Position numbers and translations under genes: made by a program
Origin: Tistrella mobilis
Lineage (GTDB): Bacteria; Pseudomonadota; Alphaproteobacteria; Tistrellales; Tistrellaceae
Reading direction: 5' to 3'
Length of the DNA stretch: 64,000 nucleotides
NCBI RefSeq assembly: GCF_039634785.1
Contig: NZ_JBBIAB010000003.1
Coordinates: 13,724 to 77,723, forward strand
Part shown: one piece after another, positions 20,485 to 64,000 of the stretch
Numbering within the stretch: position 1 is the first letter of the stretch
How the letters are laid out: each line of letters starts with the position of its first letter
Notes under the pieces: model-generated
The model's database searches: none
What the model was told of the DNA's origin: nothing
The model's input: only the letters and a program-made list of their open reading frames with translations

Positions 20485-21615
20485 ATGACCGACCGACGCC
20501 ACCAGACCCGCCGCAGGCAGCTTCGTGCCCATCCCGCAGCCGCGGCGGTGGCTGCCCCGCTTCTGACGGCCGCGATCCTCATTCTGCTGCCGGGGCCGGG
20601 CATCACCAGCGCTTTCGCCCAGGGCGCCCCGCAGGGCATGCCGGTCGAAGCGGCAAAGGCACGCGCGGAACCCTTCGCCGAAACCATCACCGTCGCCGGC
20701 GGGCTGGAAGCGGTGCAGGCGATCGACGTCGCCTCGGAAATCACCGGCCGGCTGTCGGCGATCGAGGTGACCGACGGGGCCAGGGTGAAGGCCGGCCAGG
20801 TTCTGTTCCGCCTGGACGACGCCATCGCCCGCACCGTGCTGGCCGAGGCCCAGGCCTCGATCGAGGTCAACCGTCGCAATGCCGAACGCGCCCGCGACCT
20901 TGCCCGCCGCGGCGCCGGCACCGCGCGGGCCAGCGACGAGGCAGAGGCCGAGTTGCTGATCACCCGGGCCCAGGTGCAGTCGGCACAGGTCCAGCTGGAA
21001 AAAACCGTGATCACGGCCCCCTTCGACGGCATCGCCGGCTTCCGTCAGGTCGATCTGGGCGCCTATGTCTCGCCCGGCCAGACCCTGACCACGCTCGACG
21101 ACATCGACCCGATCCGGGCGGTGTTCCGCCTGCCCGAACGCTTCGCGGGCTCCGTCCATCCCGGCACGGCGGTGACGGTGGAGGTGGAGGCCTTTCCCGG
21201 CGAGCGCTTCCCCGCCCGGGTGGCCGCCATCGACCCCCGGCTCGACCCCGGCGGCCGCAGCCTGGCGGTGCGCGCCGAGATCGACAATGCCGACGGCCGG
21301 CTCCGGCCCGGCATGTTCGCCCGCATCACCGCGGTGCTGAACGAAATCGGCGATGCGCTGATCATTCCCGAACAGGCGATCGTGCCCGGCCGGGACGGGC
21401 CCTTCGTCTACAAGATCGTCGACGGCAAGGCGACGCCCCAGCCGGTCACCATCGGTGCGCGGCGCGTGGGTGAAGTGGGGGTGACCAAGGGGCTCGCCGA
21501 TGGCGACCTGGTCATCACCGCCGGCCAGATCAAGATCGGCCCGGGCATGCCGGTGATGCCGCTGCCGACCGGCGCCGATCCCTTCGCGGCGCCCGCCCCC
21601 GGTGCCGGCGGCTGA
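20485..21615 (+). CDS. RND efflux system periplasmic adaptor (membrane fusion protein)
   Basis: Signal/TM region (LLTAAILILLPGPGITSAFA). Biotinyl/lipoyl-like and beta-barrel motifs typical of the HlyD/AcrA family. It is followed 21 bp later by the RND pump gene. Confidence 0.85.
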   Translation: MTDRRHQTRRRQLRAHPAAAAVAAPLLTAAILILLPGPGITSAFAQGAPQGMPVEAAKARAEPFAETITVAGGLEAVQAIDVASEITGRLSAIEVTDGARVKAGQVLFRLDDAIARTVLAEAQASIEVNRRNAERARDLARRGAGTARASDEAEAELLITRAQVQSAQVQLEKTVITAPFDGIAGFRQVDLGAYVSPGQTLTTLDDIDPIRAVFRLPERFAGSVHPGTAVTVEVEAFPGERFPARVAAIDPRLDPGGRSLAVRAEIDNADGRLRPGMFARITAVLNEIGDALIIPEQAIVPGRDGPFVYKIVDGKATPQPVTIGARRVGEVGVTKGLADGDLVITAGQIKIGPGMPVMPLPTGADPFAAPAPGAGG

Positions 21616-21636: not shown

Positions 21637-24600
21637 ATGAAACTCTCCGATATCTGCATCCAGCGACCGGTCTTCGCGACCGTGCTGAGCTTCGTGGTCC
21701 TGCTGCTGGGCCTGGTCGCCTATGACCGGCTGTCGGTCCGCGAATATCCCAACATCGACCCGCCGGTCGTGAACGTCGAGACCACCTATCCGGGCGCCAG
21801 CGCCCAGATCATGGAAAGCCAGATCACCCAGATCCTGGAAGACAGCCTGTCGGGCATCGAGGGGATCGACTACATCACCTCGATCAGCCGCCAGCAGCAG
21901 AGCCAGATCACCCTGCGCTTCAAGCTCGACCGCGACCCGAGCGATGCGGCGGCAGATGTCCGTGACCGCGTGGCGCGCGTCCGCGGCCAGCTGCCCGACG
22001 AGATCGACGAGCCGATCATCGAGAAGGTCGAGGCCGACGCCCAGCCGATCATCTATCTCGCCTTCTCGTCCGACCGGCATTCGCCGCTGGAGCTGTCGGA
22101 TTACGCCGACCGCTACGTCAAGGACCAGCTGCAGATCCTGACCGGCGTGTCGCAGGTGATGATCTTCGGTGAGCGGCGCTATTCGATGCGCATCGCGCTC
22201 GACCCGATCCGCGTCGCCGGCTACGGGCTGACGATCCAGGAGATCGAGGCGGCGCTGGCCGCGCAGAACGTCGAAATCCCGGCCGGCACGATCGAAAGCG
22301 CCGAGCGCGAATTCACCGTGCTCTCGGAAACCGACCTGCAGCGCCCCGAACAGTTCAACGCCATCGTCCTGGCCGAGCGCGACGGCCACCAGATCCACCT
22401 CTCCGATGTCGGCCAGGCCTTCATCGGCGCCGAGGCGGAAGACAGCGCCGCCCGCTTCAACGGCAAGCCCGCCGTGGCGATGGGTGTCGTCAAGCAGGCG
22501 ACCGCCAACCCGCTCGACGTCTCGGCGGCGGTACGCGCCCGCATCCCCGAGATCATCGAGAACCTGCCCCAGGGCATGCAGGTCGACGTCGCCTATGACA
22601 GCTCGGTCTTCATTCAGGAATCGATCAACAACGTCTACGACACCATCATCGAGGCGGTGGTGCTGGTCATCCTGATCATCTTCCTGTTCCTGCGCTCGCT
22701 CCGCGCGACGCTGGTGCCGCTGGTGACCATTCCGGTCTCGCTGATCGGCGCCTTCTTCATGATGTATCTGCTGGGCTTCACCATCAACACGCTGACCCTG
22801 CTGTCGCTGGTGCTCGCCATCGGCCTGGTGGTCGACGACGCGATCGTGATGCTGGAGAACATCTTCCGCCATATCGAGGCGGGCATGTCGCCGATGCGCG
22901 CGGCCTTCAAGGGCAGCCGCGAGATCGCCTTCGCGGTCATCGCGATGACCATCACCCTCGCCGCCGTCTACATGCCGATCGCCTTCCAGACCGGCACCAC
23001 CGGCCGGCTGTTCACCGAATTCGCCCTCACCCTGGCCGGCGCCGTGCTGATCTCGGGCTTCGTGGCGCTGACGCTGACGCCGATGATGTGCGGCGTGCTG
23101 CTGAAGCACCAGTCGAGCCATGGCCTGTTCTACCGGGTCATCGAAGGCTTCCTGAACGGCCTGACCCGCGGCTATCGGGCAACGCTCAAGGGCGCGCTCA
23201 AGGTCCGGCCGCTGATCCTGCTGATCGGTCTGGCTGTGGCGAGCGGCAGCTTCTTCCTGCTCAAGGCCCTGCCGGAAGAGCTGGCACCCTATGAAGATCA
23301 GGGCTTCCTGATCGGTTTCATCATCGGCCCCGAGGGCGCGACGCTCGATTATACCGAGCGCTATGCCCGCGGTCTGGAAGGCATCTATGCCGGCATCCCC
23401 GAGGCCGAGACCTATTTCGTGGTCGCCGGCTTCCCGCTGAAATCGCAGGGCATCAGCTTCGTGAAGCTCAAGGACTGGGCGGATCGCGAGCGCAGCGCCT
23501 CCGAGATCGCAGCCTCGGTGATGCCGTCGATGTTCGGCGGCCTGCCGGGCGTGATGGCCTTCCCGATCCCGCCCGCACCGCTCGGCCAGGAAATCGGCCA
23601 GAAGCCGGTGCAGTTCGTGGTCCAGTCCTCGCTGCCCTATGAACAGCTGGGCGCGCTGGTCGACAAGATCGTCGCCCGGGCCATGCAGAACCCCGGGCTG
23701 CAGAATGTCGAAACCGACCTCAAGCTCAACCGGCCGCAGCTGACCGTCTCGGTCGACCGGGCCAAGGCCGCCGATCTCGGCATCGGCGTGGACGTGATCG
23801 GCCGGACGCTGGAAACCGCCCTCGGCGGGCGTCAGGTCACCCGCTTCAAGCTGCATGGCGACCAGTATGACGTGATCATCCGGCTGGACGACCGCTATCG
23901 CGCCACGCCGTCGGATCTGAGCGCGATCTATGTCCGCTCGGCCACCGGCGAGATGGTCCAGCTGTCCAACCTGGTCAAGGTGACCGAGACCGTGGCGCCG
24001 CAGGGGCTGAACCACTTCAACCAGCTGCGCTCGGTGACGGTCGATGCCAATCTGGCGCCGGGCTATGCGCTGGGTGACGCCCTCACCTTCCTCGACCAGG
24101 TCGCGCGGGAGGAACTGGGCGGCCAGGCGACCACCGATCTCTCGGGCCAGAGCCGCGAATTCCGCGACAGCGCCTCCAGCCTGGTGATGACCTTCGTGCT
24201 GGCGCTGGGCTTCATCTTCCTGGTGCTCGCCGCCCAGTTCGAAAGCTGGCGCGACCCGTTCATCATCATGCTGACCGTGCCGCTCTCGATCACCGGCGGC
24301 CTTCTGGCGCTGTACCTCTCGGGCGGCACCTTCAACATCTACAGCCAGGTCGGCGTGGTCACCCTGATCGGCCTGATCACCAAGCACGGCATCCTGATCG
24401 TCGAATTCTCCAACCAGATCCGGCGCGAGGGCCTGTCGCGCAGCGATGCGGTGGTCGAGGCGGCGGTGCAGCGCCTGCGCCCGATTCTGATGACCACGGG
24501 TGCCATGGTGCTGGGCACGGTGCCGCTGGCGCTCGCCACCGGCGCCGGCGCCGAAAGCCGTCAGGATATCGGCTGGGTGATCGTCGGCGGCCTGCTGGTC

Positions 24601-24735
24601 GGCACCTTCTTCACCCTGTTCGTGATCCCGACGGTCTATACCTATATCAGCCGCCGCGACATGAAGCCGATCGTCGAGGCGCCGAGCGATGCCGAACTCG
24701 CCGCCGAGGGAGCCCAGGGCCATGTTGCCCACTGA
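21637..24735 (+). CDS. RND efflux transporter permease (HAE1 family, MdtB/MdtC/AcrB-like), pump 1
   Basis: 1032 aa with 12 TM helices and two large periplasmic loops. N-terminus MKLSDICIQRPVFATVLSFVVLLLGL is typical of HAE1 pumps. Confidence 0.9.
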   Translation: MKLSDICIQRPVFATVLSFVVLLLGLVAYDRLSVREYPNIDPPVVNVETTYPGASAQIMESQITQILEDSLSGIEGIDYITSISRQQQSQITLRFKLDRDPSDAAADVRDRVARVRGQLPDEIDEPIIEKVEADAQPIIYLAFSSDRHSPLELSDYADRYVKDQLQILTGVSQVMIFGERRYSMRIALDPIRVAGYGLTIQEIEAALAAQNVEIPAGTIESAEREFTVLSETDLQRPEQFNAIVLAERDGHQIHLSDVGQAFIGAEAEDSAARFNGKPAVAMGVVKQATANPLDVSAAVRARIPEIIENLPQGMQVDVAYDSSVFIQESINNVYDTIIEAVVLVILIIFLFLRSLRATLVPLVTIPVSLIGAFFMMYLLGFTINTLTLLSLVLAIGLVVDDAIVMLENIFRHIEAGMSPMRAAFKGSREIAFAVIAMTITLAAVYMPIAFQTGTTGRLFTEFALTLAGAVLISGFVALTLTPMMCGVLLKHQSSHGLFYRVIEGFLNGLTRGYRATLKGALKVRPLILLIGLAVASGSFFLLKALPEELAPYEDQGFLIGFIIGPEGATLDYTERYARGLEGIYAGIPEAETYFVVAGFPLKSQGISFVKLKDWADRERSASEIAASVMPSMFGGLPGVMAFPIPPAPLGQEIGQKPVQFVVQSSLPYEQLGALVDKIVARAMQNPGLQNVETDLKLNRPQLTVSVDRAKAADLGIGVDVIGRTLETALGGRQVTRFKLHGDQYDVIIRLDDRYRATPSDLSAIYVRSATGEMVQLSNLVKVTETVAPQGLNHFNQLRSVTVDANLAPGYALGDALTFLDQVAREELGGQATTDLSGQSREFRDSASSLVMTFVLALGFIFLVLAAQFESWRDPFIIMLTVPLSITGGLLALYLSGGTFNIYSQVGVVTLIGLITKHGILIVEFSNQIRREGLSRSDAVVEAAVQRLRPILMTTGAMVLGTVPLALATGAGAESRQDIGWVIVGGLLVGTFFTLFVIPTVYTYISRRDMKPIVEAPSDAELAAEGAQGHVAH

Positions 24736-25600
24736 CGATCGGGCGCGCACTGACTGGCCGGCCCCCACTAGCCACCCCGACGGTGGCCCCGGGGTCGACC
24801 TTCTGGTCATGACCCTGGATGCGACCGATCCGGAGATCAATACCCGGCTCGCGCCCCTTCTCGACGACGAGGAGCGGGCGCGGGCCGCGCGCTTTCATTT
24901 CGACCGCGACCGCCGGACCTATATCGCCGCCCATGCCCTGGTCCGGTCGGTGCTGGCGGTGCGGACCGGCATCGCCCCGGCCCGGCTCCGCTTCACCGCC
25001 GGTGCCCGCGGCAAGCCGGAACTGGCGGCCGGGCAGATGCCGGTTCTGCCCGATGGCCGGCCGGCGCTGCGCTTCAACCTGTCGCACACCCGCGAGGCGG
25101 TGGCGGTGGCGGTCAGCACCGATCCGGCCTGTGCGGCGGTGGATCTGGGCGTCGATATCGAAGCCGCCGACCGGCTGGGCGATTACGACGCCCGCATCGC
25201 CCGGAGTTTCTTCGCCGAGGACGAGGCGGCGGCACTCGAAGCCCTGCCCACGGCGGCAGAGCGTGCCCGCCGCTTCCTCACCCTCTGGACGCTCAAGGAA
25301 GCGGTGATCAAGACCACCGGCCAGGGGCTGTCGCAGAAACTCTCAGGCTTCAGCATCCGCTTTCCCGCCGCCTGGCCGGCCGACGGGCTGCTGCCAGATA
25401 TCGAAGCCCGCGATCCCGCCCCGCCGCCGGGCCTTGCCTGGCATCTGACCCATCAGGAACTGCCGCCCGCAGACGGGCGCGGGGGCCTGCATCTGGCGGG
25501 CGCCCTGCTCGCGCCCGTCAGGCAGCCCCGGCCCCGCTGGCGCTTGCACCGGGTGACACCGGCGATGCTGCCCCGGCTTCATCCGCAAGCCGCCGGCTGA
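24722..25600 (+). CDS. 4'-phosphopantetheinyl transferase, Sfp type
   Basis: Motifs VDLGVDIE and WTLKEAVIKTTG. The ATG at 24722 overlaps the RND stop (TGA 24733-24735) by 14 bp, which suggests translational coupling. Confidence 0.8.
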   Translation: MLPTDDRARTDWPAPTSHPDGGPGVDLLVMTLDATDPEINTRLAPLLDDEERARAARFHFDRDRRTYIAAHALVRSVLAVRTGIAPARLRFTAGARGKPELAAGQMPVLPDGRPALRFNLSHTREAVAVAVSTDPACAAVDLGVDIEAADRLGDYDARIARSFFAEDEAAALEALPTAAERARRFLTLWTLKEAVIKTTGQGLSQKLSGFSIRFPAAWPADGLLPDIEARDPAPPPGLAWHLTHQELPPADGRGGLHLAGALLAPVRQPRPRWRLHRVTPAMLPRLHPQAAG

Positions 25601-27251
25601 AGGCCCGCAGGATCATGCTGCGGGCAATCTCTTCGGGGTCGGTCACCACTTCCACATGGCCCTGAGCCGCCAGATAGGCGGCCTGATCGTCATCCTCGGC
25701 CCGGGCGACCACGATCAGCCCGGGATTGGCCGCCAGCGCCTGGCCGACCACCTGCCCCGCCTCGAAACTGCGCGAGATCATCACGAACATCATCCGCGCC
25801 CCCGCCAGATTGGCGGCCTTCAGGATGTCCGGCGATGCGGCATTGCCGTGGACGCATTCGATGCCGCGTTTCGCCAGATCGGCGGTGCGGCCGGGCAGAT
25901 CCTCGATCACCAGAAAAGGCAGATCGCGGGCCTCCAGCTCCGCACAGATCCGCCGGCCGACCTGGCCATAGCCCACCACCACCGCATGATCGGCCAGCGT
26001 GGTCGGCACCGGGGGCAGGTCGGGCGCGTCTTCGGGCCGGGCCGGCGGCAGCATCGGCTCGGTCCGCGCGCGCCAGATGTCGATCGCCCGGAACAGCAGC
26101 GGGTTGACCAGGATCGACAGGATGGCCCCCGCCAGAATGAAATCCTGCCCCTCGGCCGGCATCAGCCCCTGGGACACGCCCAGCGCCGCCAGGATGAACG
26201 AGAACTCGCCGATCTGGGCAAGGCTCGCCGAAATGGTCAGCGCCGTACCCCGGCCATGGCCGAAGGCCCGCACGATGCCATAGGCGGCCAGCGACTTGCC
26301 CAGGACGATGATGACCAGCGTCGCCGCCACCGGCAGGGGATCCTCGATCAGGATCGCCGGGTCGAACAGCATGCCGACCGAAACGAAGAACAGCACTGCG
26401 AAGGCATCGCGCAGCGGCAGCGATTCCTCCGCCGCCCGATGCGACAGGGTCGATTCGCTCAGCACCAGCCCGGCAAAAAAGGCGCCCAGCGCGAAAGAGG
26501 CCCCGAAGAGTTCCGAGGCGGCGAAGGCGACGCCCAATGCCAGCGCCAGCACGCACAGCCGGAACAGCTCGCGGGAGCCCATATGCGCCACCTGGTGCAG
26601 CACCCAGGGCACCACCCGGCGCCCGATCAGCAGCATCACGCCCACGAACACCGCGACCTTGCCGAGCGTCAGCGCCACCGTGACCGCAATCTCTGCCGGC
26701 GACGGTGCGCCGCGGCCTTCGGCGGTCATCAAAGCCCCGAAGGCCGGCACCAGAACCAGGGCAAGCACCATGGCCAGATCCTCGACGATCAGCCAGCCGA
26801 CGGCGATCCGGCCGCGCTCGGTCTCGATCAGCCGGCGTTCCTGCAGCGCCCGCAGCAGCACCACGGTGCTCGCCACCGACAGCGCCAGGCCGAAGACCAG
26901 ACCGGCCGTCACCGTCCAGCCCAGCGCAAGCGCCAGCCCCAGCCCCAGCAGGGTGGCCAGCCCCATCTGGGCGATGGCGCCGGGCAGAGAGATCCGCCGG
27001 ACCGACATCAGATCCTTGACCGAGAAATGCAGCCCCACGCCGAACATCAGCAGGATCACCCCCAGCTCGGCCAGCTGCGGCACCAGCATCTGGTCGGCGA
27101 CATAGCCCGGCGTCGCCGGCCCGATCGCCACCCCCGCCAGCAGATAGCCGACCAGCGGCGAAATCTTCAGCCGCTGGGCGATCGCCCCCAGCACGAAGGC
27201 GAGACCCAGGCCGGCGACGATGGTGGTGACGAGGGGCAGGTCGTGATGCAT
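25518..27251 (-). CDS. CPA2-family monovalent cation:proton antiporter (KefB/KefC-like) with a C-terminal RCK/TrkA-N domain
   Basis: Start at MHHDLPLVTTIVAGLG. Na_H exchanger TM core. Rossmann GxGxxG HAVVVGYGQVGRRI in the TrkA-N domain. Its 3' end overlaps the convergent PPTase gene by 83 bp. Confidence 0.8.
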   Translation of the reverse strand: MHHDLPLVTTIVAGLGLAFVLGAIAQRLKISPLVGYLLAGVAIGPATPGYVADQMLVPQLAELGVILLMFGVGLHFSVKDLMSVRRISLPGAIAQMGLATLLGLGLALALGWTVTAGLVFGLALSVASTVVLLRALQERRLIETERGRIAVGWLIVEDLAMVLALVLVPAFGALMTAEGRGAPSPAEIAVTVALTLGKVAVFVGVMLLIGRRVVPWVLHQVAHMGSRELFRLCVLALALGVAFAASELFGASFALGAFFAGLVLSESTLSHRAAEESLPLRDAFAVLFFVSVGMLFDPAILIEDPLPVAATLVIIVLGKSLAAYGIVRAFGHGRGTALTISASLAQIGEFSFILAALGVSQGLMPAEGQDFILAGAILSILVNPLLFRAIDIWRARTEPMLPPARPEDAPDLPPVPTTLADHAVVVGYGQVGRRICAELEARDLPFLVIEDLPGRTADLAKRGIECVHGNAASPDILKAANLAGARMMFVMISRSFEAGQVVGQALAANPGLIVVARAEDDDQAAYLAAQGHVEVVTDPEEIARSMILRAFSRRLADEAGAASPVSPGASASGAGAA

Positions 27252-27497: not shown

Positions 27498-27929
27498 ATG
27501 CCCCAGCCCATCCCGCATGGCCCGCACGCCGCCGGCCGGCAGCGCCTGCTGCCGATGCTGCTGGCGCTGCTCGCCCTGTTGTGGACGGCGGGCGCGGTGG
27601 CGGGTGCGGTGCCGCAGCTGCCGGCCGCGCGGGATGCCGCCGGCCAGCCGCGCACTGTCGGGACCGCCACCGGGCCCGGCACGCCCTTCATCCTGCCGCG
27701 CGATGCAGGGCCGGTGCTTCTGGCCGATCACGGCCGCCAGCCCATGGGCCTGCCCGCCGCGGGCGGATCGGCCCTTCCCCCGCCGGCCGTCCCCATCCCC
27801 GGCCGCCGCCTCGCCCCGCAGCACCTGCGCCGTGCGGCAGAACCGCAGGATCGGATACGGCGCCGCCGCTTCTCCCGCCCCGCCGTCCGCGCCCCGCCCG
27901 CCGGCCGGGGCCGCATCGCCGCCGCCTGA
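27498..27929 (+). CDS. Hypothetical proline-rich secreted protein (signal peptide then a low-complexity Pro/Ala/Gly-rich region)
   Basis: Hydrophobic leader LLPMLLALLALLWTAGAVAGA and very high GC3. No recognisable family and no clear Shine-Dalgarno. Alternative frames in the same region are equally open, so this call is weak. Confidence 0.25.
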   Translation: MPQPIPHGPHAAGRQRLLPMLLALLALLWTAGAVAGAVPQLPAARDAAGQPRTVGTATGPGTPFILPRDAGPVLLADHGRQPMGLPAAGGSALPPPAVPIPGRRLAPQHLRRAAEPQDRIRRRRFSRPAVRAPPAGRGRIAAA

Positions 27930-28066: not shown

Positions 28067-30403
28067 ATGCGCCTGTCGCGCTGGCTGATCCTGACCTATG
28101 CGCTGATCATTCTGGTGGGGCTGTCCGCCGCCCTGCCCAACCTGCTCACCCCCGGCCAGAGGGCGGCACTGCCCGGCTGGCTGCCGTCGAAACCCGTCAC
28201 CCTCGGCCTCGATCTCCGCGGCGGGTCGCAGCTGGTGCTGGAGGTCGACGCCTCCGCCCTGCTCAACGATCCCAGGCTGACCGAGGCGGAGCGCGCCGAA
28301 CGGCTGAATGCCGCCCTGACCCAGAGCCTCGAAATCGTCCGCACGCGCATCGACCAGATCGGCGTCGCCGAACCCTCGGTCCAGCGGGTCGGCGACGACC
28401 GGATCATGGTCCAGCTGCCCGGCGTGCAGGATCCGGCCCGGATCCGCACCCTGCTCGGCAGCACGGCGAAGCTCGGCTTCCATATGCTGGCCGATCCGCC
28501 GGCCCCCGGAGCCCGCCCGGCACCCGGCACCCTGCTGCTGCCCATGCAGGACGAACGCGACGGCAGCGGCGCGCCGCGAAAGCTGGCGGTTCAGGCACAG
28601 CCCGCGCTCGACGGCGACCGGCTGGCCGATGCCCATGCCGGCTTCGATCCACGCAGTGGCGAGCCGGTGGTCAATTTCCGCTTCGACGAGGCCGGCGCCC
28701 GGCGCTTCGCCGAGATCACGACGCAGAATGTCGGCCGCCCCTTCGCCATCGTGCTCGACGGTCGGATCCTGAGCGCCCCGGTGATCCGCGAGCCGATCAC
28801 CGGCGGCGCGGGCCAGATCAGCGGCCGGTTCTCGGTGGCCGAGGCCGGCGTGCTTTCGGCCCTGCTCCGTGCCGGCGCCCTGCCGGCCCCGCTCAGGGTG
28901 ATCGAGGAACGCAGCGTCGGCCCCGATCTGGGCGGAGACGCGATCCGTGCCGGCATCATTGCCGGCCTGGCCGGCTTCGCGCTGGTCTGCGGCTTCATGG
29001 TGGTGCTCTATCGCGGCTGGGGGATGATCGCGAACCTGGCCCTGCTGCTCAACGTCGCCCTCACCCTGGGCGCGCTCTCGGCGCTGGGTGCCACCCTCAC
29101 TCTGCCAGGTATCGCCGGCATCATTCTGGGGCTGGGACTTGCGGTCGATGCCAATGTGCTGATCAACGAGCGCATCCGGGAAGAGACCCGCCGCGGCCGC
29201 GCGGCACGGGCCGCACTCGATGCCGGGTTCAAGCGGGCCTATGCGACCATCGTCGATTCCAACGTCACCAGCCTGATCGCCACCCTGCTGCTGTTCCAGT
29301 TCGGCAGCGGCCCGGTGCGCGGCTTCGCCGTCACCATGGCGCTCGGCATCCTGATCTCGATGTTCACCGCGGTCACCGTGGTCAGGATCGTCATGACCCG
29401 GATTCTGGAACGGCGCGGCGCGCTCCGCTCCTCCACGGCCAGGCTGGAGATCGAACCGCTGATCCGGCTGATGCCGAAAGGCGACACCCGGATCCGCTTC
29501 ATGCGCGCCCGCTTTGCCGGCATTGCGGTCTCGGCCGCGCTGTCGCTCGCCTCGATCGGGCTGTTCGTCTCGCCCGGGCTCAATTACGGCGTCGACTTCA
29601 AGGGCGGCATCCAGATCGAGGCCGCAACCCATGCCGATCCGGGCCGCCTGCGCGACCGGCTGGACGGGCTGGGGTTGGGAGAGATCACCCTCCAGCAGAC
29701 CGGCAGCGACGGTGTCCTGGTCCGGGTGGCGCGTCAGCCGGGCGATGATGCCGCACAGACCATCGCGGTCGAAAGGCTCAAGGCGGCGATCCGGGATGTC
29801 GACCCCGCCGCCGGCATCGAGCGGGTCGATGTGGTGGGGGCCAGGGTCAGCGGCGAACTTGCCACCGCCGGCGTGCTGGCGGTGGTGCTCGCCGGCCTCG
29901 CCATGATGGTCTACATCTGGTGGCGCTTCGAATGGCCCTTTGCGGTGGGGGCCATCGCGACGCTGGTGCTCGACATCACCAAGACGATCGGCTTCTTCGC
30001 CCTTACCGGCATCGACTTCAACCTGACCGCCATCGCCGCCCTGTTGACCCTGATCGGCTATTCGGTCAACGACAAGGTCGTGGTCTACGACCGGATGCGC
30101 GAGAACCTGCGCCTGCATCGCACGCTGTCGCTGCGCGAGATGATCGATCTTTCGATCAATCAGACACTGACCCGCAGCCTCTACACCTCGGCGACCGCCT
30201 TCCTCGCCATGCTGCCGCTGGCGATCTGGGGCGGCAGCGCGGTGGAGAGTTTCGCGGTCCCGATGGTGTTCGGCATCGTGGTCGCGGCCTCGTCCTCGGT
30301 GTTCATCGCCGCCCCCATCCTGCTGTTCCTGGGAGAGCCGATGCGCCGGCGCAGCCGGTCGGCCCTGACGGCGGAGGGGTCAGCGACCGCAACCACCGGG
30401 TGA
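28067..30403 (+). CDS. secDF: Fused SecD/SecF protein-export membrane protein (SecDF)
   Basis: SecD part: GLDLRGGSQLVLEVD and the periplasmic head. SecF part: IRFMRARFAGIAVSAALSLASIGLF...GVDFKGGIQIEA. 778 aa in a single ORF. Confidence 0.85.
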   Translation: MRLSRWLILTYALIILVGLSAALPNLLTPGQRAALPGWLPSKPVTLGLDLRGGSQLVLEVDASALLNDPRLTEAERAERLNAALTQSLEIVRTRIDQIGVAEPSVQRVGDDRIMVQLPGVQDPARIRTLLGSTAKLGFHMLADPPAPGARPAPGTLLLPMQDERDGSGAPRKLAVQAQPALDGDRLADAHAGFDPRSGEPVVNFRFDEAGARRFAEITTQNVGRPFAIVLDGRILSAPVIREPITGGAGQISGRFSVAEAGVLSALLRAGALPAPLRVIEERSVGPDLGGDAIRAGIIAGLAGFALVCGFMVVLYRGWGMIANLALLLNVALTLGALSALGATLTLPGIAGIILGLGLAVDANVLINERIREETRRGRAARAALDAGFKRAYATIVDSNVTSLIATLLLFQFGSGPVRGFAVTMALGILISMFTAVTVVRIVMTRILERRGALRSSTARLEIEPLIRLMPKGDTRIRFMRARFAGIAVSAALSLASIGLFVSPGLNYGVDFKGGIQIEAATHADPGRLRDRLDGLGLGEITLQQTGSDGVLVRVARQPGDDAAQTIAVERLKAAIRDVDPAAGIERVDVVGARVSGELATAGVLAVVLAGLAMMVYIWWRFEWPFAVGAIATLVLDITKTIGFFALTGIDFNLTAIAALLTLIGYSVNDKVVVYDRMRENLRLHRTLSLREMIDLSINQTLTRSLYTSATAFLAMLPLAIWGGSAVESFAVPMVFGIVVAASSSVFIAAPILLFLGEPMRRRSRSALTAEGSATATTG

Positions 30404-30485: not shown

Positions 30486-31271
30486 ATGCAGCCCACCGCC
30501 TCGCGCTGGGTCCAGCCCGGCCAGGATCGCTGGCTCACCGGTCCCGCCGGCCGAAGCGCCGCGCCCTGGCGGCTGCTCTGCATCCCCCATGCCGGCGGCG
30601 GCGCCAGCGCCTTCCGCCCCTGGGAGGGGTTCACCGGCCCGGATGTCGAGCTTCTGGTCGCCCAGCTGCCGGGCCGCGAAAGCCGTTTTCCCGAACCGGC
30701 GCTCGACCGGGTGGCACCGGTGGTCGACGGGCTGGCCACCGCCCTCGGCCGTCTTGCACCCAAGCCGACCCTGATCTTCGGACACAGCATGGGTGCGATG
30801 ATCGGCTATGAACTGGCCGCCCGGCTGGTGGGGGAGGCCTCGCCCCATGCGCCGCGCACGCTGATCGTCTCGGGCCGCACCGCCCCCGGCTCATCCAGCA
30901 CGCTGGGCGATCTGCTCGGGCTGGACGATGCCGGCTTCGCGGATGCGCTTGCCGCCCGGTATGACGGCATCCCGGCCGCCCTGCTCGCCGATCGCGAATT
31001 GATGGCCGTGTTCCTGCCGACCCTCAGGGCCGATTTCCGGATGGTCGCGGAATATCGCCCGGATCCTGCCGCCTGCCCGCGCCTGCCCTGCCCGATCCTG
31101 GCGCTGGGCGGGGCCGACGACATCCATGCCGCCCCCGAACGGCTGGCCGCCTGGCAGGGTTTCACCACCGCCGGCTTCATGCGCGAGATCTTCCCGGGCG
31201 GGCATTTCTATCTGGCGGCCGATCCCGCCCGGGTGGTTGCGCGCGTGCTGGCCGCGCGCGGCATGGTCTGA
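30486..31271 (+). CDS. Type II thioesterase (NRPS/PKS editing thioesterase, alpha/beta hydrolase)
   Basis: GHSMGAMIGYELA nucleophile elbow, about 260 aa. Strong Shine-Dalgarno GAAGGAGGGG. Located inside the NRPS island. Confidence 0.85.
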   Translation: MQPTASRWVQPGQDRWLTGPAGRSAAPWRLLCIPHAGGGASAFRPWEGFTGPDVELLVAQLPGRESRFPEPALDRVAPVVDGLATALGRLAPKPTLIFGHSMGAMIGYELAARLVGEASPHAPRTLIVSGRTAPGSSSTLGDLLGLDDAGFADALAARYDGIPAALLADRELMAVFLPTLRADFRMVAEYRPDPAACPRLPCPILALGGADDIHAAPERLAAWQGFTTAGFMREIFPGGHFYLAADPARVVARVLAARGMV

Positions 31272-31274
31272 GGC

Positions 31275-32726
31275 TCAGCCCCCCGCGCCCGCGACCCTGG
31301 CGCCGCCCACGGGCGGGGCGGTTTCAGGAACGACGCCATAGGGCCCGAACCCCGCCGGCCCATAGGGCGTGGTCACGGCACCCGTGCCGCCGCCGATGCC
31401 CAGCCACCGGCTCAGCTGTTCCAGGGTCACCGGCTCACCCGGCAGGAAGCCCTGGCGCACGGCGGTGGGCGCCGGCTGGGGCGAGGCAGGCTGCACCGGG
31501 GCCGCCGGCGCCGTCGGATGCTCGGGCGTGGTGGTTTCCGGCACCATGGCCCGGCCGACCGAGGCGGTGCCGGCAGGCGCGCCTTCGACGACCGCCTCGC
31601 TCTCGCCACTATCCATGCGCGGCCCTGATTTCGGCCCGCCGGCCGGCGCGGGCCGAGAGCCCGTCTGGTTGAGGGGCTCCGACCCCACCGGCCGGATCTC
31701 GGCCGTGCCCGCATCCACGTCGCCCAGGATGACCGGCTGGCCGGCACCGCCATCGGCAGCCTGGGGCCCGCCCGTAGCGCCGGACGTCGTCGCCGCGCGG
31801 GCGCCATTGCTGTCGATGCCACCCAGGATCAGCGGCATGCCGCCCGAATCCTTGTTGCCGATCACCACCACCTTGGCATTGGTCGACTGGGCCAGCTGCA
31901 CCGAGGCATTGATGCCGAGCCAGGTGAGATAATCCGGAATCTCCGAGGCACCGACCCGGTCGAACAGCATGCGGATACCTTCACCTTCGATCCGCTTGCG
32001 TTCGGCTTCCTTCTGCTCGGTCGCCAGGCGGTAATCATATTCCAGCTGACGCTGATACTGCTCGACCTTGCGTTCGATCGCCTGGGCGACGCGCTCGGGC
32101 AGATGGATCGCCTTGATCAGCACGTCCTGCAGCTCGATCAGGTCGAAACCGGGCTGGCTGTAATAGTTGCCGCGCAGGAAATTCGCCTTCACGCCCTCGT
32201 AGATCTCGTTCTGCACGATGGTACGCAGGTTCGAGTAAAAATCCTCGGCGGTGTACTGCGAGATGCGCGCCCGGGCGACCGATCCGACCTCGGGAATGAT
32301 GATCTTGTGCAGGTATTCCGGGCCGACATTCTTGTGCAGGATACCGACATACTGCTCGTTCACCCGGTAGCGGAACGAGATGGTGGTGGCGACCGTCAGG
32401 CCGTCTGCGGTGATCGCATCATAGGTCTGGGTCACGGTCTGGAAGCGGACGTCATAGATCTCCAGCCGGTCCCAGGGCCAGATCACCTGCAACCCTTCAC
32501 CCGTCGGGCTGTCGACATCGGTCCCGCTGAAGCGGTGCCAGACGACGCCGGCATGACCGGCCGGCACGGTGATGAACATCGCCGGCCAGAACAGGATGAT
32601 CAGCGCGCCGGCGATCAGCACCGACAGGGTCAGCGACCAGAGATGGCGGCGCAGCCAGCCGCCGATCCGGCCGAGAGGTCCGGGACGCTCCGGCTCGTCG
32701 GTCATGTCCATATCGGCGACCGTCAT
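31275..32726 (-). CDS. SPFH/Band-7 (prohibitin/HflC-like) domain membrane protein with a long Pro/Gly/Ala-rich C-terminal tail
   Basis: N-terminal TM helix (LWSLTLSVLIAGALIILFW). SPFH core (GHAGVVWHRFSGT...YEGVKANFL). Coiled-coil EQYQRQLEYDYRLATEQKEAERKR. Start ATG 32724-32726 forms an ATGA overlap with the upstream ABC exporter stop and has GGGAGG 7 nt upstream. Confidence 0.8.
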   Translation of the reverse strand: MTVADMDMTDEPERPGPLGRIGGWLRRHLWSLTLSVLIAGALIILFWPAMFITVPAGHAGVVWHRFSGTDVDSPTGEGLQVIWPWDRLEIYDVRFQTVTQTYDAITADGLTVATTISFRYRVNEQYVGILHKNVGPEYLHKIIIPEVGSVARARISQYTAEDFYSNLRTIVQNEIYEGVKANFLRGNYYSQPGFDLIELQDVLIKAIHLPERVAQAIERKVEQYQRQLEYDYRLATEQKEAERKRIEGEGIRMLFDRVGASEIPDYLTWLGINASVQLAQSTNAKVVVIGNKDSGGMPLILGGIDSNGARAATTSGATGGPQAADGGAGQPVILGDVDAGTAEIRPVGSEPLNQTGSRPAPAGGPKSGPRMDSGESEAVVEGAPAGTASVGRAMVPETTTPEHPTAPAAPVQPASPQPAPTAVRQGFLPGEPVTLEQLSRWLGIGGGTGAVTTPYGPAGFGPYGVVPETAPPVGGARVAGAGG

Positions 32727-34411
32727 GCCGGATCCTCCCAATCTTCGCCTTCAGTACGGGCTTCGTCTTCAGTACGGGCGTCGCCGTTGTCGACGATCCT
32801 GACCACGCGCCCCTCCTCCATCGCCACCCGACGGTCGGCGACGTCGAAATAGCGGTCGTCATGGGTGATCGCGATCACCGTCTTGCCACGCGCCTTCAGC
32901 ATCGGCAGCAGTTCCCGATAGAATTTGCGCCGGAACTGCGGGTCCTGATCGGCAGCCCATTCGTCGAGCACCAGCACCGGCCGGTCCTCGATCATCGACA
33001 CCATCAGCGCCAGGCGCTTCCGCTGGCCGCTCGACAGGTCGATCGTATCGAACAGGTCGCCCTGAAGCGCCACCTTGCCGCCCATCTCCATCAGCTTCAC
33101 CAGCGCCTCGAATTCGGCCGCATCCGGCGGCTCGATCCCGTAAAGGCGGCGGAACAGATGGTAGTCGGCATAGATCGCCGAGAACAGCGAACGATAGGTT
33201 TCGAACGAACCGCGGGTGACCGGTTTCCCATCCAGCCGGATCATGCCCCTGTCGGCATGATAGAGGCCGAGCAGCAGGCGGATCAGGGTCGACTTGCCCG
33301 AGCCGTTGCCGCCGGTCACGAAGATCAGCTCGCCGGCCCGGATGGTCAGATCCACCGGCCCCACCCCGAATGACACGCCGCCCACCGGCGCATAGGTGAA
33401 GGCCACCCCGTCCAGCCGGATCTCCTCGAACGAGGTCAGGGTCTGGGGCGGGGTCTCGGCCACCTCGGACGCGGCGGCGATCTCGCGCAGCACGCGGTCC
33501 ATGCGCATCAGGTTCTCGGCGGCGGCATTGGCCATCGCCATCATCGGCACGGCCTGGATGACCATGCTGAGCGGGCCGACGATGAACAGGATCGCGGTGG
33601 CGGTGCGGACCACCGCCTCGGGCTCGGTATTGCCGAAGCTCGGCACCACGAAGACCACCACGCCCAGCAGCAGGAAGATCATCGTCTGGCCGAAAACGAA
33701 TTCATTGCCCGACTTCACCTGCATGTCGGCCTTGGCATCGCGCGCCTCGGTGGACAGCCGTGCCATGTCGCGCAGCAGGGCATCGCGGCGCGAGGACGAC
33801 AGCTTCACTTCCTTGAAGCCGTCGAGCACGTCGCGCATGCTCTCGAAAACCTGGTTTTCCTTCATCATCGCAGCCGGATACCGGTTGCGCAGATCGATCA
33901 GCCGCCGGACGACCAGAAACACCGCGATGGCGATGAAACCGGTGCTGAGCCAGAAGGCGGTGCGATCGGTGATGAAGATGTAGATCATCGCCAGCCCGAC
34001 CAGGATCACCGACTGGGCGGCGATCACCAGCAGGTTGGCGGCCTGGGAAATCGTCTGGGTGTCGCGGATGACGCTGGCCAGGATATTGCCGCGCCCCACC
34101 TGTTCCAGGGGCAGCAGATCGGATCGCGAAACCGCGTCGATCAGGCTGCTACGCTGGCGATGGATGATCTCCTCCACCTCGGTGGCGGTGATCTGCATCA
34201 TCCGGCGCTGGCTGAGCACATAGACCGCGACCACGATCGCAAACAGCGCCACCGTCCGCAGGTCGAGCGCATCGTCGTAGAGCCCGGCGGAATTGTTGAT
34301 GATCGCCATCACCAGCGCGTTGCTGACACCGGCGAGCGCGGCGATGAACAGGAGGGTCGCCGGCTTCGCCGTCAGGTCGCGGCGAATAAGCTCGATCAGG
34401 GGCATCGTCAC
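32723..34411 (-). CDS. Fused TMD-NBD ABC exporter of the cyclic-peptide/siderophore exporter type (SyrD/PvdE/YojI-like)
   Basis: N-terminal 6-TM ABC_membrane domain. Walker A GGNGSGKST. Signature LSSGQRKRLAL. Walker B VLVLDE. 562 aa. Confidence 0.85.
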   Translation of the reverse strand: MTMPLIELIRRDLTAKPATLLFIAALAGVSNALVMAIINNSAGLYDDALDLRTVALFAIVVAVYVLSQRRMMQITATEVEEIIHRQRSSLIDAVSRSDLLPLEQVGRGNILASVIRDTQTISQAANLLVIAAQSVILVGLAMIYIFITDRTAFWLSTGFIAIAVFLVVRRLIDLRNRYPAAMMKENQVFESMRDVLDGFKEVKLSSSRRDALLRDMARLSTEARDAKADMQVKSGNEFVFGQTMIFLLLGVVVFVVPSFGNTEPEAVVRTATAILFIVGPLSMVIQAVPMMAMANAAAENLMRMDRVLREIAAASEVAETPPQTLTSFEEIRLDGVAFTYAPVGGVSFGVGPVDLTIRAGELIFVTGGNGSGKSTLIRLLLGLYHADRGMIRLDGKPVTRGSFETYRSLFSAIYADYHLFRRLYGIEPPDAAEFEALVKLMEMGGKVALQGDLFDTIDLSSGQRKRLALMVSMIEDRPVLVLDEWAADQDPQFRRKFYRELLPMLKARGKTVIAITHDDRYFDVADRRVAMEEGRVVRIVDNGDARTEDEARTEGEDWEDPA

Positions 34412-34520: not shown

Positions 34521-34733
34521 TCAGCGCCGCCGCGCCTTGCGCGCGACCACCGGAGGAGCCGGCTCGCGCGGGCGGGTCGCATACAGCACCAGCAGCACCA
34601 CGAAGGGGGTCAGCAGGATGGACAGCAGGAAGGAGACGACGAAGCCCGGTTTGCGGCCCGCGCCACAGAGGCCGACCATCACCGACATGACGACGTAGAT
34701 GATGGGGAGCATGAGGCCGGCAATCGGCGGCAT
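34521..34733 (-). CDS. Hypothetical small membrane protein (70 aa, 2 TM helices)
   Basis: MPPIAGLMLPIIYVVMSVMVGLCGAGRKPGFVVSFLLSILLTPFVVLLVLYA, then a basic tail. Confidence 0.35.
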   Translation of the reverse strand: MPPIAGLMLPIIYVVMSVMVGLCGAGRKPGFVVSFLLSILLTPFVVLLVLYATRPREPAPPVVARKARRR

Positions 34734-34873: not shown

Positions 34874-35464
34874 TCACGACGCCTTGGTGGCGGCGGGCTT
34901 GCCCTCGGCCTTCGCTGCGTCGGCCGCGGCCTTCGCCGCTTCGGTGGTCGACGGCGCATCGGCCTTGGCGGCCTCGAATTCGGCCTTGAAGTGCTCGCGC
35001 AGCTGATCCGGGTTGAAGTTCAGCAGCGTGCCGCCGGTCTCGAAGTGCTGGATGAACACCCGGCCGATGGCGTAGGTCACGGCATAGGAAACGGTGGGCG
35101 AAACCGCGAGACCGATGACGGTACCGACCACCGGCACCGCCTTCACCAGGCTGGCGACGCCACCGACCAGGCCGGCCGCGGCGGTGCCGGGGACGACGGT
35201 GTTGGCCAGCGAGCCGATGATCGCCTTGGCGCGGTTCTCGCTGAACGGCACGTCATAGAGCTTCGACAGCTCGTAGATCATCTTCACCTGCACGCCCGTG
35301 ACCAGGGCCACGTCGAGCAGGGGGAAAGGCAGCAGGCCGGCGCCCGCGCCCCAGAGCGCGCAACGCTTGACCAGCGAACGCGCATCGTCGGCGCGCAGCT
35401 CAGGGGTGTACTCTTCGGCGGGAGCAGCCGTCACTTCGGCGGTGGACATCGATCGCATCCTCAT
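34874..35464 (-). CDS. Conserved hypothetical protein, DUF697-like
   Basis: The segment LPFPLLDVALVTGVQVKMIYELSKLYDVPFSENRAKAIIGSLANT resembles the DUF697 core. Gly/Ala-rich C-terminus. The start is ambiguous (M at 35464 or MSTAEV at 35448). Confidence 0.45.
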   Translation of the reverse strand: MRMRSMSTAEVTAAPAEEYTPELRADDARSLVKRCALWGAGAGLLPFPLLDVALVTGVQVKMIYELSKLYDVPFSENRAKAIIGSLANTVVPGTAAAGLVGGVASLVKAVPVVGTVIGLAVSPTVSYAVTYAIGRVFIQHFETGGTLLNFNPDQLREHFKAEFEAAKADAPSTTEAAKAAADAAKAEGKPAATKAS

Positions 35465-40301: not shown

Positions 40302-46696
<6,395 letters not shown>

Positions 46697-46700
<4 letters not shown>

Positions 46701-49700: not shown

Positions 49701-52101
49701 TGGTGCCGCATGGCCTGCGCCCCGGTGCCGTGCGCAATGAATTCGGCATGGCCGAACTCTGCACGGTGATGACCGGCGGCATCGACTTCACCGCAGACGG
49801 CGCCTGCCGCCATGTCACCGCCGGATCGCTGACCGGCCGGCTGCGCGCCGCCACGGCCCCCGGCCCCGGCACGGTCAGCTTCGTCGATGCCGGCCGGCCG
49901 ATCCCCGGTGTCGCGATCCGCATCGCCGATCCCGACGGCGCCACCTGCCCGGAAGGCGTGATCGGCCGGCTTCAGGCGCGGGGTGCCGTCACCACCCCCG
50001 GCTATATCGACAACGCCGCCGCCAATGAAGCGGCCTTCGCCGATGCCGGCTGGTTCGACACCGGCGATCTGGGCTTCATCGCCGATGGCCGCCTGGTGCT
50101 GACCGGCCGGCTGAAAGAGATGATCGTCGTCCGCGGCGCCAATCACTATGCCCATGACGTCGAAGACGAGGCCGGCCGTGCGGCAGGGGTCGCCGCCACT
50201 TTCGTCGCCGCCACCGCCGTCGACCGCCCCGATCTCGGCACCGAAGGGATCGCCGTTTTCTACGTGCCCGAGGCTTGTCTGGCCGAGATCGGTGCCGCCG
50301 ATGATGCCGGCCCGCGCCGCGCCGAAATCGCCGAGATCACCGCCCGTCTTGCCCGCCGGCTCGGCATTGCGCCCTCGGTGGTGGTGCCGCTGGACCGGGC
50401 CGATTTCCCCAAGACCACCAGCGGCAAGATCCAGCGCACCGCCCTGCGCCGCCGGCTGGAAGCGGGCGATTTCGATGCCCGACTTGCCACCCTCGGCCTC
50501 GCCCCGGGCCGCGATCGGGGGCCGGGACTGCCCGACTGGTTCCTTGAGCCGGGGGATGCCCCCGCCCCGCCGCTTGCCGGCGCCCCGCGGCTTGGGCTGA
50601 TCGAAGACCGCCTGCCGCGTGGCATGGCGCTGGCCGATGCCATCGACCGCCGGCGCGCGCTGCTGGCCCGGCTGGCCGGCCAGGATGCCGAGCTGGTGCA
50701 GGATGCCGAACTGGTCACCGTGACACCCGCCGGCGACGTCACCGCCGCCGCGGTCGATGCCTTCACCGCCGCCGCGGCCGAGGACCTGCCCGGCCTGCAT
50801 CTGCGCCGGATCATCGTGGCCGACGGTACCCCCGAAGCGGTGGTCACCGACGAGATCGCCCGCGGCACCCTGCCGGTGGTCCACCTTACGGCCGGCGGCC
50901 GCACCCGGCCGGTGCTGCGCCCGGCGCGGCTCGCCACCGACATCCCTGCCCAGGGTATCGCCCCGGGGCAGTCCTGGCTGGTCACCGGCGGCCATGGCGG
51001 GCTCGGCCGGGCGCTGATCCGCCACCTGCTCGATCGGGGCGTGGCCTCCATTACCGTCATCGGCCGGCGCATGGCAACGATGGATGACCCGCGGGTGCAG
51101 GCCCTGTCGCTCGATCTTGCCGCCGCCGATGCCGGCGCGCGGCTTGCGGCCCTCGGCCGGTTCGACGGCATCGCCCATCTGGCCGGGCTCTATCGCGAGC
51201 GCCCGGCGGCCGAGGAAGACGGCAGGGCGGTGGCCGAGCTGGCGGCGCCCAAGACCGGCATGCTGCCGGCGCTTGCCCGCCTGCTGCGGGATGACGGGCT
51301 GCTGATCGCCTTCTCCTCCGTCGTGGCCCATCTGCCGGCGGCCGGCACCGCGGCCTATGCCGCCGCCAATGCGGCCCTCGAAGCCGAAGCCGCTGCGCTG
51401 CGCCGGCCCGGCGGGCCACGCCTCGTCACCATCGCCTGGACGAATTGGGAAGGGCCCGGCATGGGGGCGGCCGTCACCGGTGCCGCCGGCCTCGCCCGCG
51501 GCCGCGGCCTGCTGCCCATCCCGCCCGCCGACGGTCTGGCCAGCCTGGATGTCGTGCTGGCCGCCGGCCTCACCCGCGCGGTGATCGGCGCCGATCGCCG
51601 CCATCCGATGATCGCGGCCCGCTGCATCGATCCGGAACTGTCCCCCGCCCGCGCCCGCGCGGTGCTGCTGGTGGCAGGTGAAACGGCTGCCCCGGCGACG
51701 CTCCGCCGGGCCGAAGACGTCTTCGGCACCCCTGCCGGGCCCGGGCTCCGCCATGTCGATCATCTGCCGGAAAGCGACGACGCCCTTGCGGCCCTTGCCG
51801 GCGGCGGCGACACCCTTGCGGCCGTCGCCCCCCGCACGCCGACCGAAACCGCCTTGGCCGCGATCTGGTCGGAACTGCTGCCGGCACCGGTCGCCGGCAT
51901 CGATGCCGATTTCTTCGCCGCCGGCGGCCACAGCCTGCTCGCCGCCCGGATCGTCACCCGGATCAACGACCATTTCGGCCTGCACCTCACCCCGGCCGCG
52001 CTGTTCGATGCCCCGACCATCCGCGCGCTGGCGGCGCATGTCGACGGCATTGCGGCGCCGGGCCCGGCCGGAGCCGACGAGGATTTCGAGGAGGGCGCCC
52101 T

Positions 52102-52105
<4 letters not shown>
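46697..52105 (+). CDS. Hybrid NRPS module: C - (vestigial A-domain C-terminal fragment) - acyl-AMP-ligase (FAAL/AL-type) adenylation domain - ketoreductase - T
   Basis: ATGA overlap with the upstream NRPS. C domain HHIVADGWS (47263-47289). ANL domain with FIQLSSGSTGVPKCIQVTHGGV, NWLPFDHVVPM, EFGMAEL, GRLKEMIVVRGANHYAHDVE, PKTTSGKIQR. KR Rossmann WLVTGGHGGLG and SSVVAHLPAAGTAAYAAANAAL. T domain FFAAGGHSLLAARI. Confidence 0.9.

Positions 52106-64000
<11,895 letters not shown>

Follow-up and report, generated by a model that had tools for sequence, protein, structure and literature searches.

Which product is made by the megasynthetase genes that begin at position 40302 of a 64,000-nucleotide stretch of Tistrella mobilis DNA and run off its end, and which of the transporter and helper genes before them take part? 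The stretch (contig NZ_JBBIAB010000003.1, positions 13,724 to 77,723) is called the window below, and positions are counted from its first letter unless a reference sequence is named. An initial annotation, made from the sequence alone, had read the region from about 20.5 kb onwards as a nonribosomal peptide synthetase (NRPS)/hybrid assembly line equipped with its own phosphopantetheinyl transferase (PPTase), with a thioesterase for editing and with an exporter of the SyrD type. This core reading was right, and the assembly line can be named. The region is almost certainly the first ~43% of the didemnin (did) cluster, an NRPS-polyketide synthase (PKS) cluster, together with its upstream helper and transporter genes. 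It is thus an already characterised system rather than a new one.

Identity of the locus

Between 40000 and 64000, the window aligns with positions 674639–698547 of the megaplasmid pTM3 of T. mobilis KA081020-065 (NC_017958.1), with 95.5% nucleotide identity and 100% coverage. Collinearity with pTM3 (635547–698547) extends across the whole window, the exception being one insert of ~1 kb at 10611–11598. The Did proteins are 94.5–96.6% identical to their pTM3 counterparts (DidA 94.5%, DidB 95.2%), and the accessory proteins of the window are all found in pTM3 in the same order, with 84–99% identity. DidA, which has 2132 residues in the window and 2123 in pTM3, shares a 90% cluster with the UniProt entry I3TWS4, 'DidA' of T. 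mobilis KA081020-065. By this alignment, 40302–46700 is didA, 46697–52105 is didB, and the frame from 52102 to the window end is a fused didC-didD. The RND, thioesterase, MnmA and first megasynthetase proteins have exact matches in T. mobilis, which excluded an origin in myxobacteria or Burkholderiales that 70–74% GC, the TubC docking domain and the TctABC genes had suggested. The window also matches contig JBHUNG010000010.1 of GCA_042685245.1 (~321189–385188, reversed). Judging by exact matches to this assembly and to DRR031213/4, it probably represents the JCM21370/type-strain lineage.

The window and the did locus of KA081020-065 agree in gene order, upstream accessory block included, and in the domain architecture of didA and didB. 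They differ in the replicon. In KA081020-065 the region is part of the 1.13-Mb pTM3, whereas in other T. mobilis genomes it lies on contigs of ~4.8–5.2 Mb. The region also carries housekeeping-type genes, among them mnmA, TctABC, and Fe-S and ferredoxin genes. Because of these genes and the large contigs elsewhere, we infer that pTM3 either acts as a chromid or has been integrated in the other strains. The published did clusters of strains L17 and JCM21370, which we compared from the publications, likewise have a chromosomal location and, in JCM21370, a fused didC-didD; there, the type II thioesterase (TEII) is drawn within the cluster and was tested by knockout, and transporters are among the 19 flanking open reading frames (ORFs) (PMC10811503; PMC9964501).

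The first description of the did cluster of KA081020-065 is reported to be that of Xu et al. (J Am Chem Soc 2012). Genetic and biochemical tests have followed, so that its rediscovery here adds nothing fundamental. Deletion of didB abolishes didemnin production, and the cluster is chromosomal in 17 Tistrella isolates (bioRxiv 10.1101/2023.04.24.537896). In T. mobilis L17, DidA has been reconstituted in vitro, and knockouts of the type II thioesterase and of the DidK esterase have been made (PMC10811503). The product is an anticancer and antiviral depsipeptide. Didemnin B has clinical relevance, as does plitidepsin, which is derived from it.

Megasynthetase genes in the window

The three megasynthetase genes are co-directional and overlap at an ATGA (46697) and a GTGA (52102), exactly as the initial annotation had it. 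Its own proposed test, a domain-level search, recovers condensation (C), adenylation (A), carrier (T), ketoreductase (KR), methyltransferase (MT) and epimerisation (E) domains, all in plus-strand frames. The genes and their domains (Pfam) are as follows.

40302–46700, plus strand: didA, 2132 aa, C(starter)-A(Gln)-T-C-A(Gln)-T
didA domains, plus strand: C 40332–41633, A 41715–43130, T 43218–43409, C 43488–44774, A 44856–46265, T 46356–46544
46697–52105, plus strand: didB, 1802 aa, C-A(keto acid)-KR-T, lactate module
didB domains, plus strand: C 46868–48172, A 48842–50005, KR 50975–51451, T 51851–52042
52102–64000, off the window end, plus strand: fused didC-didD, partial, dock-C-A(Pro)-T-C-A(Leu)/MT-T-E-C-A(Thr)...
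didC-D module 1, plus strand: TubC_N dock 52114–52263, C 52327–53601, A 53671–55089, T 55171–55371
didC-D module 2, plus strand: C 55426–56757, A 56818–57858, N-MT 58357–58725, A10 motif ~59479, T 59590–59778, E 59830–61170
didC-D module 3, plus strand: C 61282–62646, A 62761–63819 and beyond

The specificity codes of the A domains, read against a GrsA sequence whose anchor residues reproduce the published DAWTIAAICK code, are:

DidA module 1: DAWQFGLIDK, Gln
DidA module 2: DAWQFGLIDK, Gln
DidB: non-canonical, keto acid
DidC-D, first A domain: DVQFAAQVVK, Pro-like
DidC-D, second A domain: DAWALGHVVK, Leu-like
DidC-D, third A domain: DFWNIGMVH, Thr

The codes and the domain order match what would be expected for the known prodrugs didemnin X and Y. 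The side chain and the first ring residues of didemnin X/Y show collinearity with the predicted order, which is acyl-Gln-Gln, lactate, Pro, N-Me-D-Leu and Thr. The epimerisation domain of DidC-D follows the second carrier and shows the motifs PVQAWF, HHLVIDA, EGHGRE and FNYLG, of which EGHGRE and FNYLG are lacking in the neighbouring condensation domains. The third frame stays open from 52102 to the last base (3966 residues in the window, no stop codon), which bears out the statement that the synthetases run past the window edge. Among the matches listed, a homology search with the last 1000 residues of this protein gave proteins of at most 1736 aa with up to 46% identity, and a contig scan with the last 500 gave adenylation domains of unrelated phyla with 41–57% identity. 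The label 'hybrid' holds in part: there is no PKS domain within the window, and PKS domains follow beyond its edge in the reference pTM3.

Keto-acid-activating A-KR-T depsipeptide modules are found in CesA/B of cereulide and Vlm1/2 of valinomycin synthesis. DidB resembles these modules in its C-A-KR-T order, in a divergent A domain without the usual A5 and A8 motifs, and in a KR placed between A and T. The A domain of DidB lacks the canonical A5 and A8 motifs, and its KR has the NADPH motif GGHGGLG. A weak AMP-binding_C-like segment (E ~1e-3 to 1e-4) precedes the A domain of DidB (48362–48580), and another one is found in the downstream hydroxyisovalerate (Hiv) module (~10530–10735 of the pTM3 stretch L084). 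These segments before keto-acid A domains may be a degenerate A-subdomain.

DidA has the architecture C-A-T-C-A-T with two Gln codes. The starter role of its first C domain is taken from the in vitro acylation by the L17 orthologue. A starter C and extra N-terminal modules that make a lipidated cap, cleaved off during export, also occur in the systems of xenocoumacin (XcnG), colibactin (ClbP), amicoumacin and zwittermicin (PMC10811503). In those N-acyl prodrug systems, the cap is acyl-D-Asn and is removed by an S12 peptidase, whereas the did cap is acyl-(Gln)3–4, ester-linked, and removed by the CAAX-type esterase DidK (PMC10811503).

The accessory block upstream of didA

The block between 20.5 and 40 kb contains the following features.

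20485–21615, plus strand: RND periplasmic adaptor (MFP1); Pfam HlyD_D23/HlyD_3; TIGR01730 285 bits against a cut-off of 95; 97.5% identical to pTM3
21637–24735, plus strand: RND permease of the HAE1 type (RND1); ACR_tran 1048 bits; WP_345957682.1
24722–25600, plus strand: Sfp-type 4'-phosphopantetheinyl transferase, 292 aa; ACPS (PF01648) and AASDHPPT_N (PF22624)
25518–27251, minus strand: CPA2 K+/H+ antiporter, YbaL-type; Na_H_Exchanger and TrkA_N; NF007950 YbaL equivalog 716 against a cut-off of 700
27498–27929, plus strand: 143-aa ORF 5' of SecDF (gene call)
28067–30403, plus strand: fused SecDF; SecD_SecF_C (two halves) and SecDF_P1_head; NF009583 984 against a cut-off of 721
30486–31271, plus strand: type II thioesterase ('DidJ' in the nomenclature of Zou et al. 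2023), 261 aa; Pfam Thioesterase PF00975 138 bits
31275–32726, minus strand: SPFH/Band-7 (prohibitin-family) membrane protein, last gene of the cassette described below; Band_7
32723–34405, minus strand: cyclic-peptide export ABC transporter of the SyrD/PvdE/YojI family; TIGR01194 322.1 bits against a cut-off of 286.2; ABC_tran
34521–34733, minus strand: 70-aa micro-protein with two transmembrane (TM) segments (gene call; no Pfam match)
34874–35449, minus strand: DUF697 membrane protein, at the head of the cassette; PF05128
35736–38828, minus strand: RND permease (RND2); ACR_tran 869 bits
38828–39961, minus strand: RND adaptor (MFP2), divergent from didA; HlyD_D23; TIGR01730 234 bits
39962–40301, no strand: divergent intergenic region between MFP2 and didA; GC 0.60 over 40031–40301 against ~0.70 in the flanks

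The genes and domains in the initial annotation all lie where it placed them or within a few bases, as judged by Pfam, NCBIfam and gene calls. Among them are the Sfp-type PPTase (ACPS plus AASDHPPT_N), the fused SecDF and the CPA2 antiporter (by NCBIfam and Pfam), and the SyrD/PvdE-like exporter, which passes TIGR01194 and whose gene is bounded at 34405 rather than 34411. Four genes of the block had gone unlisted: those for the SPFH protein, the 70-aa micro-protein, the DUF697 protein and the 143-aa ORF.

How much of this block serves didemnin production? The thioesterase is the gene with an experimental link. Its source annotation reads 'thioesterase II family protein', and the knockout of its orthologue in T. 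mobilis L17 left ~30% of the didemnin B titre (PMC10811503). The predicted role as an editing partner is thus upheld by Pfam and by genetics. The PPTase, we infer, primes the carrier domains. Its best NCBIfam match is the HetI equivalog model at 94 against a cut-off of 370, and it is therefore not a HetI equivalog. Its start overlaps the stop of RND1 by 14 nt, and the two genes are translationally coupled both in the window and in T. bauzanensis.

The two MFP-RND pairs are, as claimed, paralogous, at a distance of 43% identity for the RND and 33% for the MFP proteins. The best NCBIfam model for RND1, NF033617, scores 1212, just under its cut-off of 1250. MFP2 and RND2 lie between didA and the ABC transporter cassette, on the strand of the cassette. 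Among the ORFs and gene calls of 20–40 kb we found no gene for an outer-membrane factor (OMF), the third part of a tripartite RND system; working pumps would call for an OMF gene at another place in the genome. The two pairs are syntenic within the genus and may add efflux or self-protection. In the divergent region between MFP2 and didA, a promoter scan gave one weak sigma-70-like match (40241–40270, plus strand), which we do not count as evidence.

An alternative for the block is that it is neighbouring DNA kept by descent in the genus, in which the assembly line is served only by the TEII and possibly the PPTase, while the RND pumps, the ABC cassette, SecDF and CPA2 do unrelated housekeeping work. 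In its favour, the window has a GC content of 0.62–0.76 without a sharp step at 20.5 kb or 40 kb. Neither a composition jump nor mobility genes were found that would set 20.5–40 kb apart from the upstream housekeeping genes. Of the 'island' that the initial annotation proposed, the gene block is real and the island signature is not there. In the literature, moreover, no knockout of a transporter was found.

SecDF and CPA2 fit this alternative. A CPA2-type exchanger, a small ORF (120–143 aa) and SecDF recur together in Azospirillum halopraeferens and on a 3.3-Mb JGI alphaproteobacterial contig, and in both loci no NRPS was found within 10 kb. The 143-aa ORF has no Pfam or PADLOC match; its positional counterparts upstream of SecDF in these two non-NRPS loci are ~30% identical and of low complexity. 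Among the matches listed, non-Tistrella relatives of SecDF are 60–72% identical, and many of them are alphaproteobacterial and named SecD or SecD/SecF fusion protein. At the did locus of T. bauzanensis the order is didA, MFP2, RND2, DUF697, micro-ORF, ABC, SPFH, TEII, CPA2, PPTase, RND1, MFP1, and both SecDF and the small ORF are absent. Because the module recurs without an NRPS and SecDF is missing in T. bauzanensis, we judge SecDF and CPA2 not to be didemnin-specific. Together with the small ORF, they would make up a conserved but unrelated module inside the block, and SecDF and CPA2 need no longer be counted among the genes considered for didemnin transport. The claim that almost every gene from 20.5 kb onwards is tied to secondary metabolism thus loses these two, while TEII, PPTase and the ABC transporter remain consistent with it.

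For the remaining genes, several observations speak against a mere neighbourhood. The PPTase is coupled to RND1 in two species, MFP2, RND2 and the cassette form an operon divergent from didA, and the ABC protein scores above the cut-off of a cyclic-peptide exporter family. The comparative record of the cassette adds to this. On balance, we consider descent within the genus the less likely reading of the block.

A conserved four-gene membrane cassette around the ABC exporter

The ABC protein is a half-transporter with six hydrophobic (TM) segments and a nucleotide-binding domain. The start of the SPFH gene overlaps its stop by 4 nt. The SPFH protein has a single TM segment at its N terminus and a long tail rich in Pro, Ala and Gly. 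By following SPFH homologues we arrived at seven genomic contexts, the window included:

T. mobilis (window): DUF697 / micro-ORF / ABC / SPFH, beside the did NRPS-PKS genes
T. bauzanensis: four genes in the same order, beside didA
Rhodovibrionaceae genome: four genes in the same order, beside a FAAL gene and an NRPS of >4126 aa
Azospirillum argentinense: four genes plus an inserted substrate-binding protein (SBP) and a second ABC gene, no NRPS within 8 kb
ENA metagenome contig: four genes in the same order, beside lasso-like (Asn_synthase plus PqqD) and LanM-like genes
JGI contig (L094): DUF697 / micro-ORF / SPFH / TEII / PPTase with the ABC gene on the other strand, beside an AprA-type PKS
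Azospirillaceae metagenome-assembled genome: ABC / SPFH / TEII, where the contig ends

The order of the cassette is fixed as DUF697, micro-protein (56–70 aa), ABC and SPFH, the last two overlapping or a few tens of bases apart. The DUF697 proteins are 47–69% identical across cassettes. The micro-protein of the window aligns with ORFs of 56–70 aa that occupy the corresponding place in five of the other contexts; all of them have two TM segments and share conserved positions G-F and T-P. The TIGR01194 cut-off is passed by the ABC protein of the window and by six of seven cassette ABC proteins from other contexts.

When metagenomes were scanned with the DUF697 alignment, another 79 loci came up. 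Here, the other parts were counted with hidden Markov models built from the known cassettes, and only where the contig left room for the part in question. Of 65 loci, 60 have the micro-ORF after DUF697; the ABC gene comes next in 46 of 49 and the SPFH gene in 29 of 32. In 23 of 45 loci, a divergent NRPS condensation domain lies 330–436 nt upstream of the cassette. The 79 loci are not independent, their DUF697 proteins forming about one group at 70% identity under single-linkage clustering, and they thus speak for the fixity of the cassette and not for its breadth. The latter rests on about eight distinct lineages.

Most of the independent contexts place the cassette beside NRPS, PKS or RiPP (ribosomally synthesised and post-translationally modified peptide) genes, and on the JGI contig it is interleaved with a TEII and a PPTase next to a PKS. 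This argues against a housekeeping role, the A. argentinense cassette without an NRPS nearby being the case on the other side. PADLOC, which we consulted for a known phage-defence system, gave only generic ATPase matches to the ABC protein, and the cassette was rejected as such a system. In full-text literature searches on DUF697, or on SPFH/prohibitin proteins with an NRPS and an ABC transporter, we found no description of the cassette.

The ABC exporter and its cassette partners would most likely be the didemnin exporter, as suggested by family and context. The ABC protein is like the SyrD/PvdE/YojI exporters in scoring above the TIGR01194 cut-off. Unlike them, it is translationally coupled to an SPFH gene and preceded by genes for a DUF697 protein and a micro-protein, an arrangement that we did not find described. 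We put forward, tentatively and as the less probable side of the question, that the didemnin exporter may be part of a conserved four-gene membrane module rather than a lone SyrD-type ABC transporter, and that this module accompanies peptide clusters of Tistrella, of one Rhodovibrionaceae and one Azospirillaceae genome and of many contigs from soil metagenomes, next to NRPS genes beginning with a condensation domain, an AprA-type PKS and lasso- or lanthipeptide-like genes. If so, a dedicated exporter of peptides would be organised or gated by SPFH protein acting as a scaffold or cage. The DUF697, micro-protein and SPFH genes would then be concrete candidates for the export step, which is the least understood part of didemnin maturation and affects titres.

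The core beyond the window edge

What follows the window edge is described from the reference pTM3. The core genes end there at position 729401, and the whole core measures ~54.5 kb, of which the window holds the first 23.7 kb (43%). The downstream frames are, in order, KS-KR-T-C; A-KR-T; KS-cMT-T; C-A-T; C-A-T; and C-A-MT-T-TE, with KS for ketosynthase and TE for thioesterase. Neither did PKS frame (4251–9368 and 14222–18463 of the pTM3 stretch L084) has a match to Acyl_transf_1, and the did PKS modules thus appear to be AT-less (without an acyltransferase domain). The last core gene is followed by a TIR-domain gene, a MazG_C gene, the Rce1-like DidK and a GntR/FCD regulator. DidK was located by a catalytic-motif scan and Pfam, ~6 kb past the last core gene:

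pTM3 735243–736283, minus strand: DidK, Rce1-like (CAAX-like) esterase

The spacing motif of its catalytic residues was also scanned for in the window and has no match there. The TIR-domain and MazG_C-domain proteins lie between the last core gene and DidK (31825–35898 of L084). Both domains are common in defence systems.

Several points weigh against the identification of the locus as the didemnin cluster with its helper genes. The window ends inside didC-D, and the remaining ~31 kb of the core were read in the reference pTM3. T. bauzanensis DSM22817 has a truncated did cluster without didC-H (PMC9964501). Pyruvate as the substrate of DidB is an assignment from the literature. The ABC cassette, the RND pumps and the PPTase, in turn, would be tied to didemnin by sequence and context.

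A did-like variant that makes no product or an altered one, through an internal deletion or as a congener, with the window as its conserved front end, could hide in the unread part downstream of module 6, and both the T. bauzanensis truncation and the shortened cluster of strain L16 (bioRxiv 10.1101/2023.04.24.537896) show that such forms occur, but it is highly improbable given that the front part of didC-D, missing from the truncated form, is intact here with its modules for Pro, MeLeu and Thr, that didC-D is fused as in the producer JCM21370, that the source contig runs ~320 kb past the window edge, and that 16 of 17 Tistrella isolates make didemnin B (bioRxiv 10.1101/2023.04.24.537896).

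The didC/didD boundary

In the did cluster as read here, the third megasynthetase gene is a single frame in the window and two frames, the published didC and didD, in pTM3. In an alignment of 1100 nt around the break, the sole length difference is one base in a run of C:

56036–56040, plus strand: CCCCC in the window, CCCC at pTM3 690630–690633

The site is found 72 codons 3' of the HHxxxDG motif and falls within the middle of the MeLeu module's condensation domain. Because a split at this point would halve a catalytic domain, the simplest reading is that the didC/didD split in pTM3 would be a homopolymer error in the 2012 assembly or a strain-specific frameshift. In pTM3, a condensation domain is likewise interrupted by the boundary of didH and didI (21827–22320 of L084, pTM3 ~719.8–720.3 kb): the upstream frame ends in a partial second C match, and the downstream frame starts from profile position 130. 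This is probably a second frameshift artefact with the same cause.

Stankey et al. report both pairs, didC/didD and also didH/didI, to be 'fusions' in JCM21370 (PMC9964501). The C-run difference is, as far as the alignment tells, the nucleotide basis of the didC-didD 'fusion', one of these two. In the ten-gene didA–J layout of the reference strain, at least one boundary is thus apparently a frameshift, which matters for cloning or re-engineering from that reference.

Proposed assembly and maturation

In our working model, the Sfp-type PPTase would prime the carrier domains. The starter C domain of DidA would then acylate Gln with 3-hydroxydecanoate, and the two Gln modules would iterate to build an N-acyl-(Gln)3–4 prodrug cap. 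Lipo-initiation and iterative polyGln synthesis by DidA were demonstrated in vitro for the L17 orthologue (PMC10811503). DidB is predicted to activate pyruvate as a keto acid, which its embedded KR would reduce to lactate, ester-joined to the cap. DidC-D would add Pro, Leu and Thr in this order, with the inserted MT methylating the Leu nitrogen and the E domain epimerising this residue. Past the window, an Ile module, two PKS modules, the hydroxyisovalerate A-KR-T, the Leu, Pro and N,O-diMe-Tyr modules and the TE would complete and cyclise didemnin X/Y. Meanwhile, the type II thioesterase would clear mis-primed carriers, a role backed by the L17 knockout.

Export would fall to the TIGR01194 ABC transporter with its cassette partners, as suggested by family and conserved context, with a possible scaffold or gating role for the SPFH protein and a possible auxiliary role for the RND pumps. 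At export, the membrane-bound CAAX-like esterase DidK would cut off the acyl-polyGln cap to give didemnin B. In line with this, DidK-dependent ester cleavage is tied to secretion for the orthologue (PMC10811503).

Other features of the window

Outside the cluster, a BrnT toxin / HTH antitoxin pair (9951–10558) is followed by the ~1 kb stretch absent from pTM3 (10611–11598). The insert directly adjoins a gene for tRNA-Met (CAT) at that gene's 3' end (11601–11675, minus strand); an Rfam scan of the window gave one tRNA only. The stretch looks like the remnant of a small integrated element.

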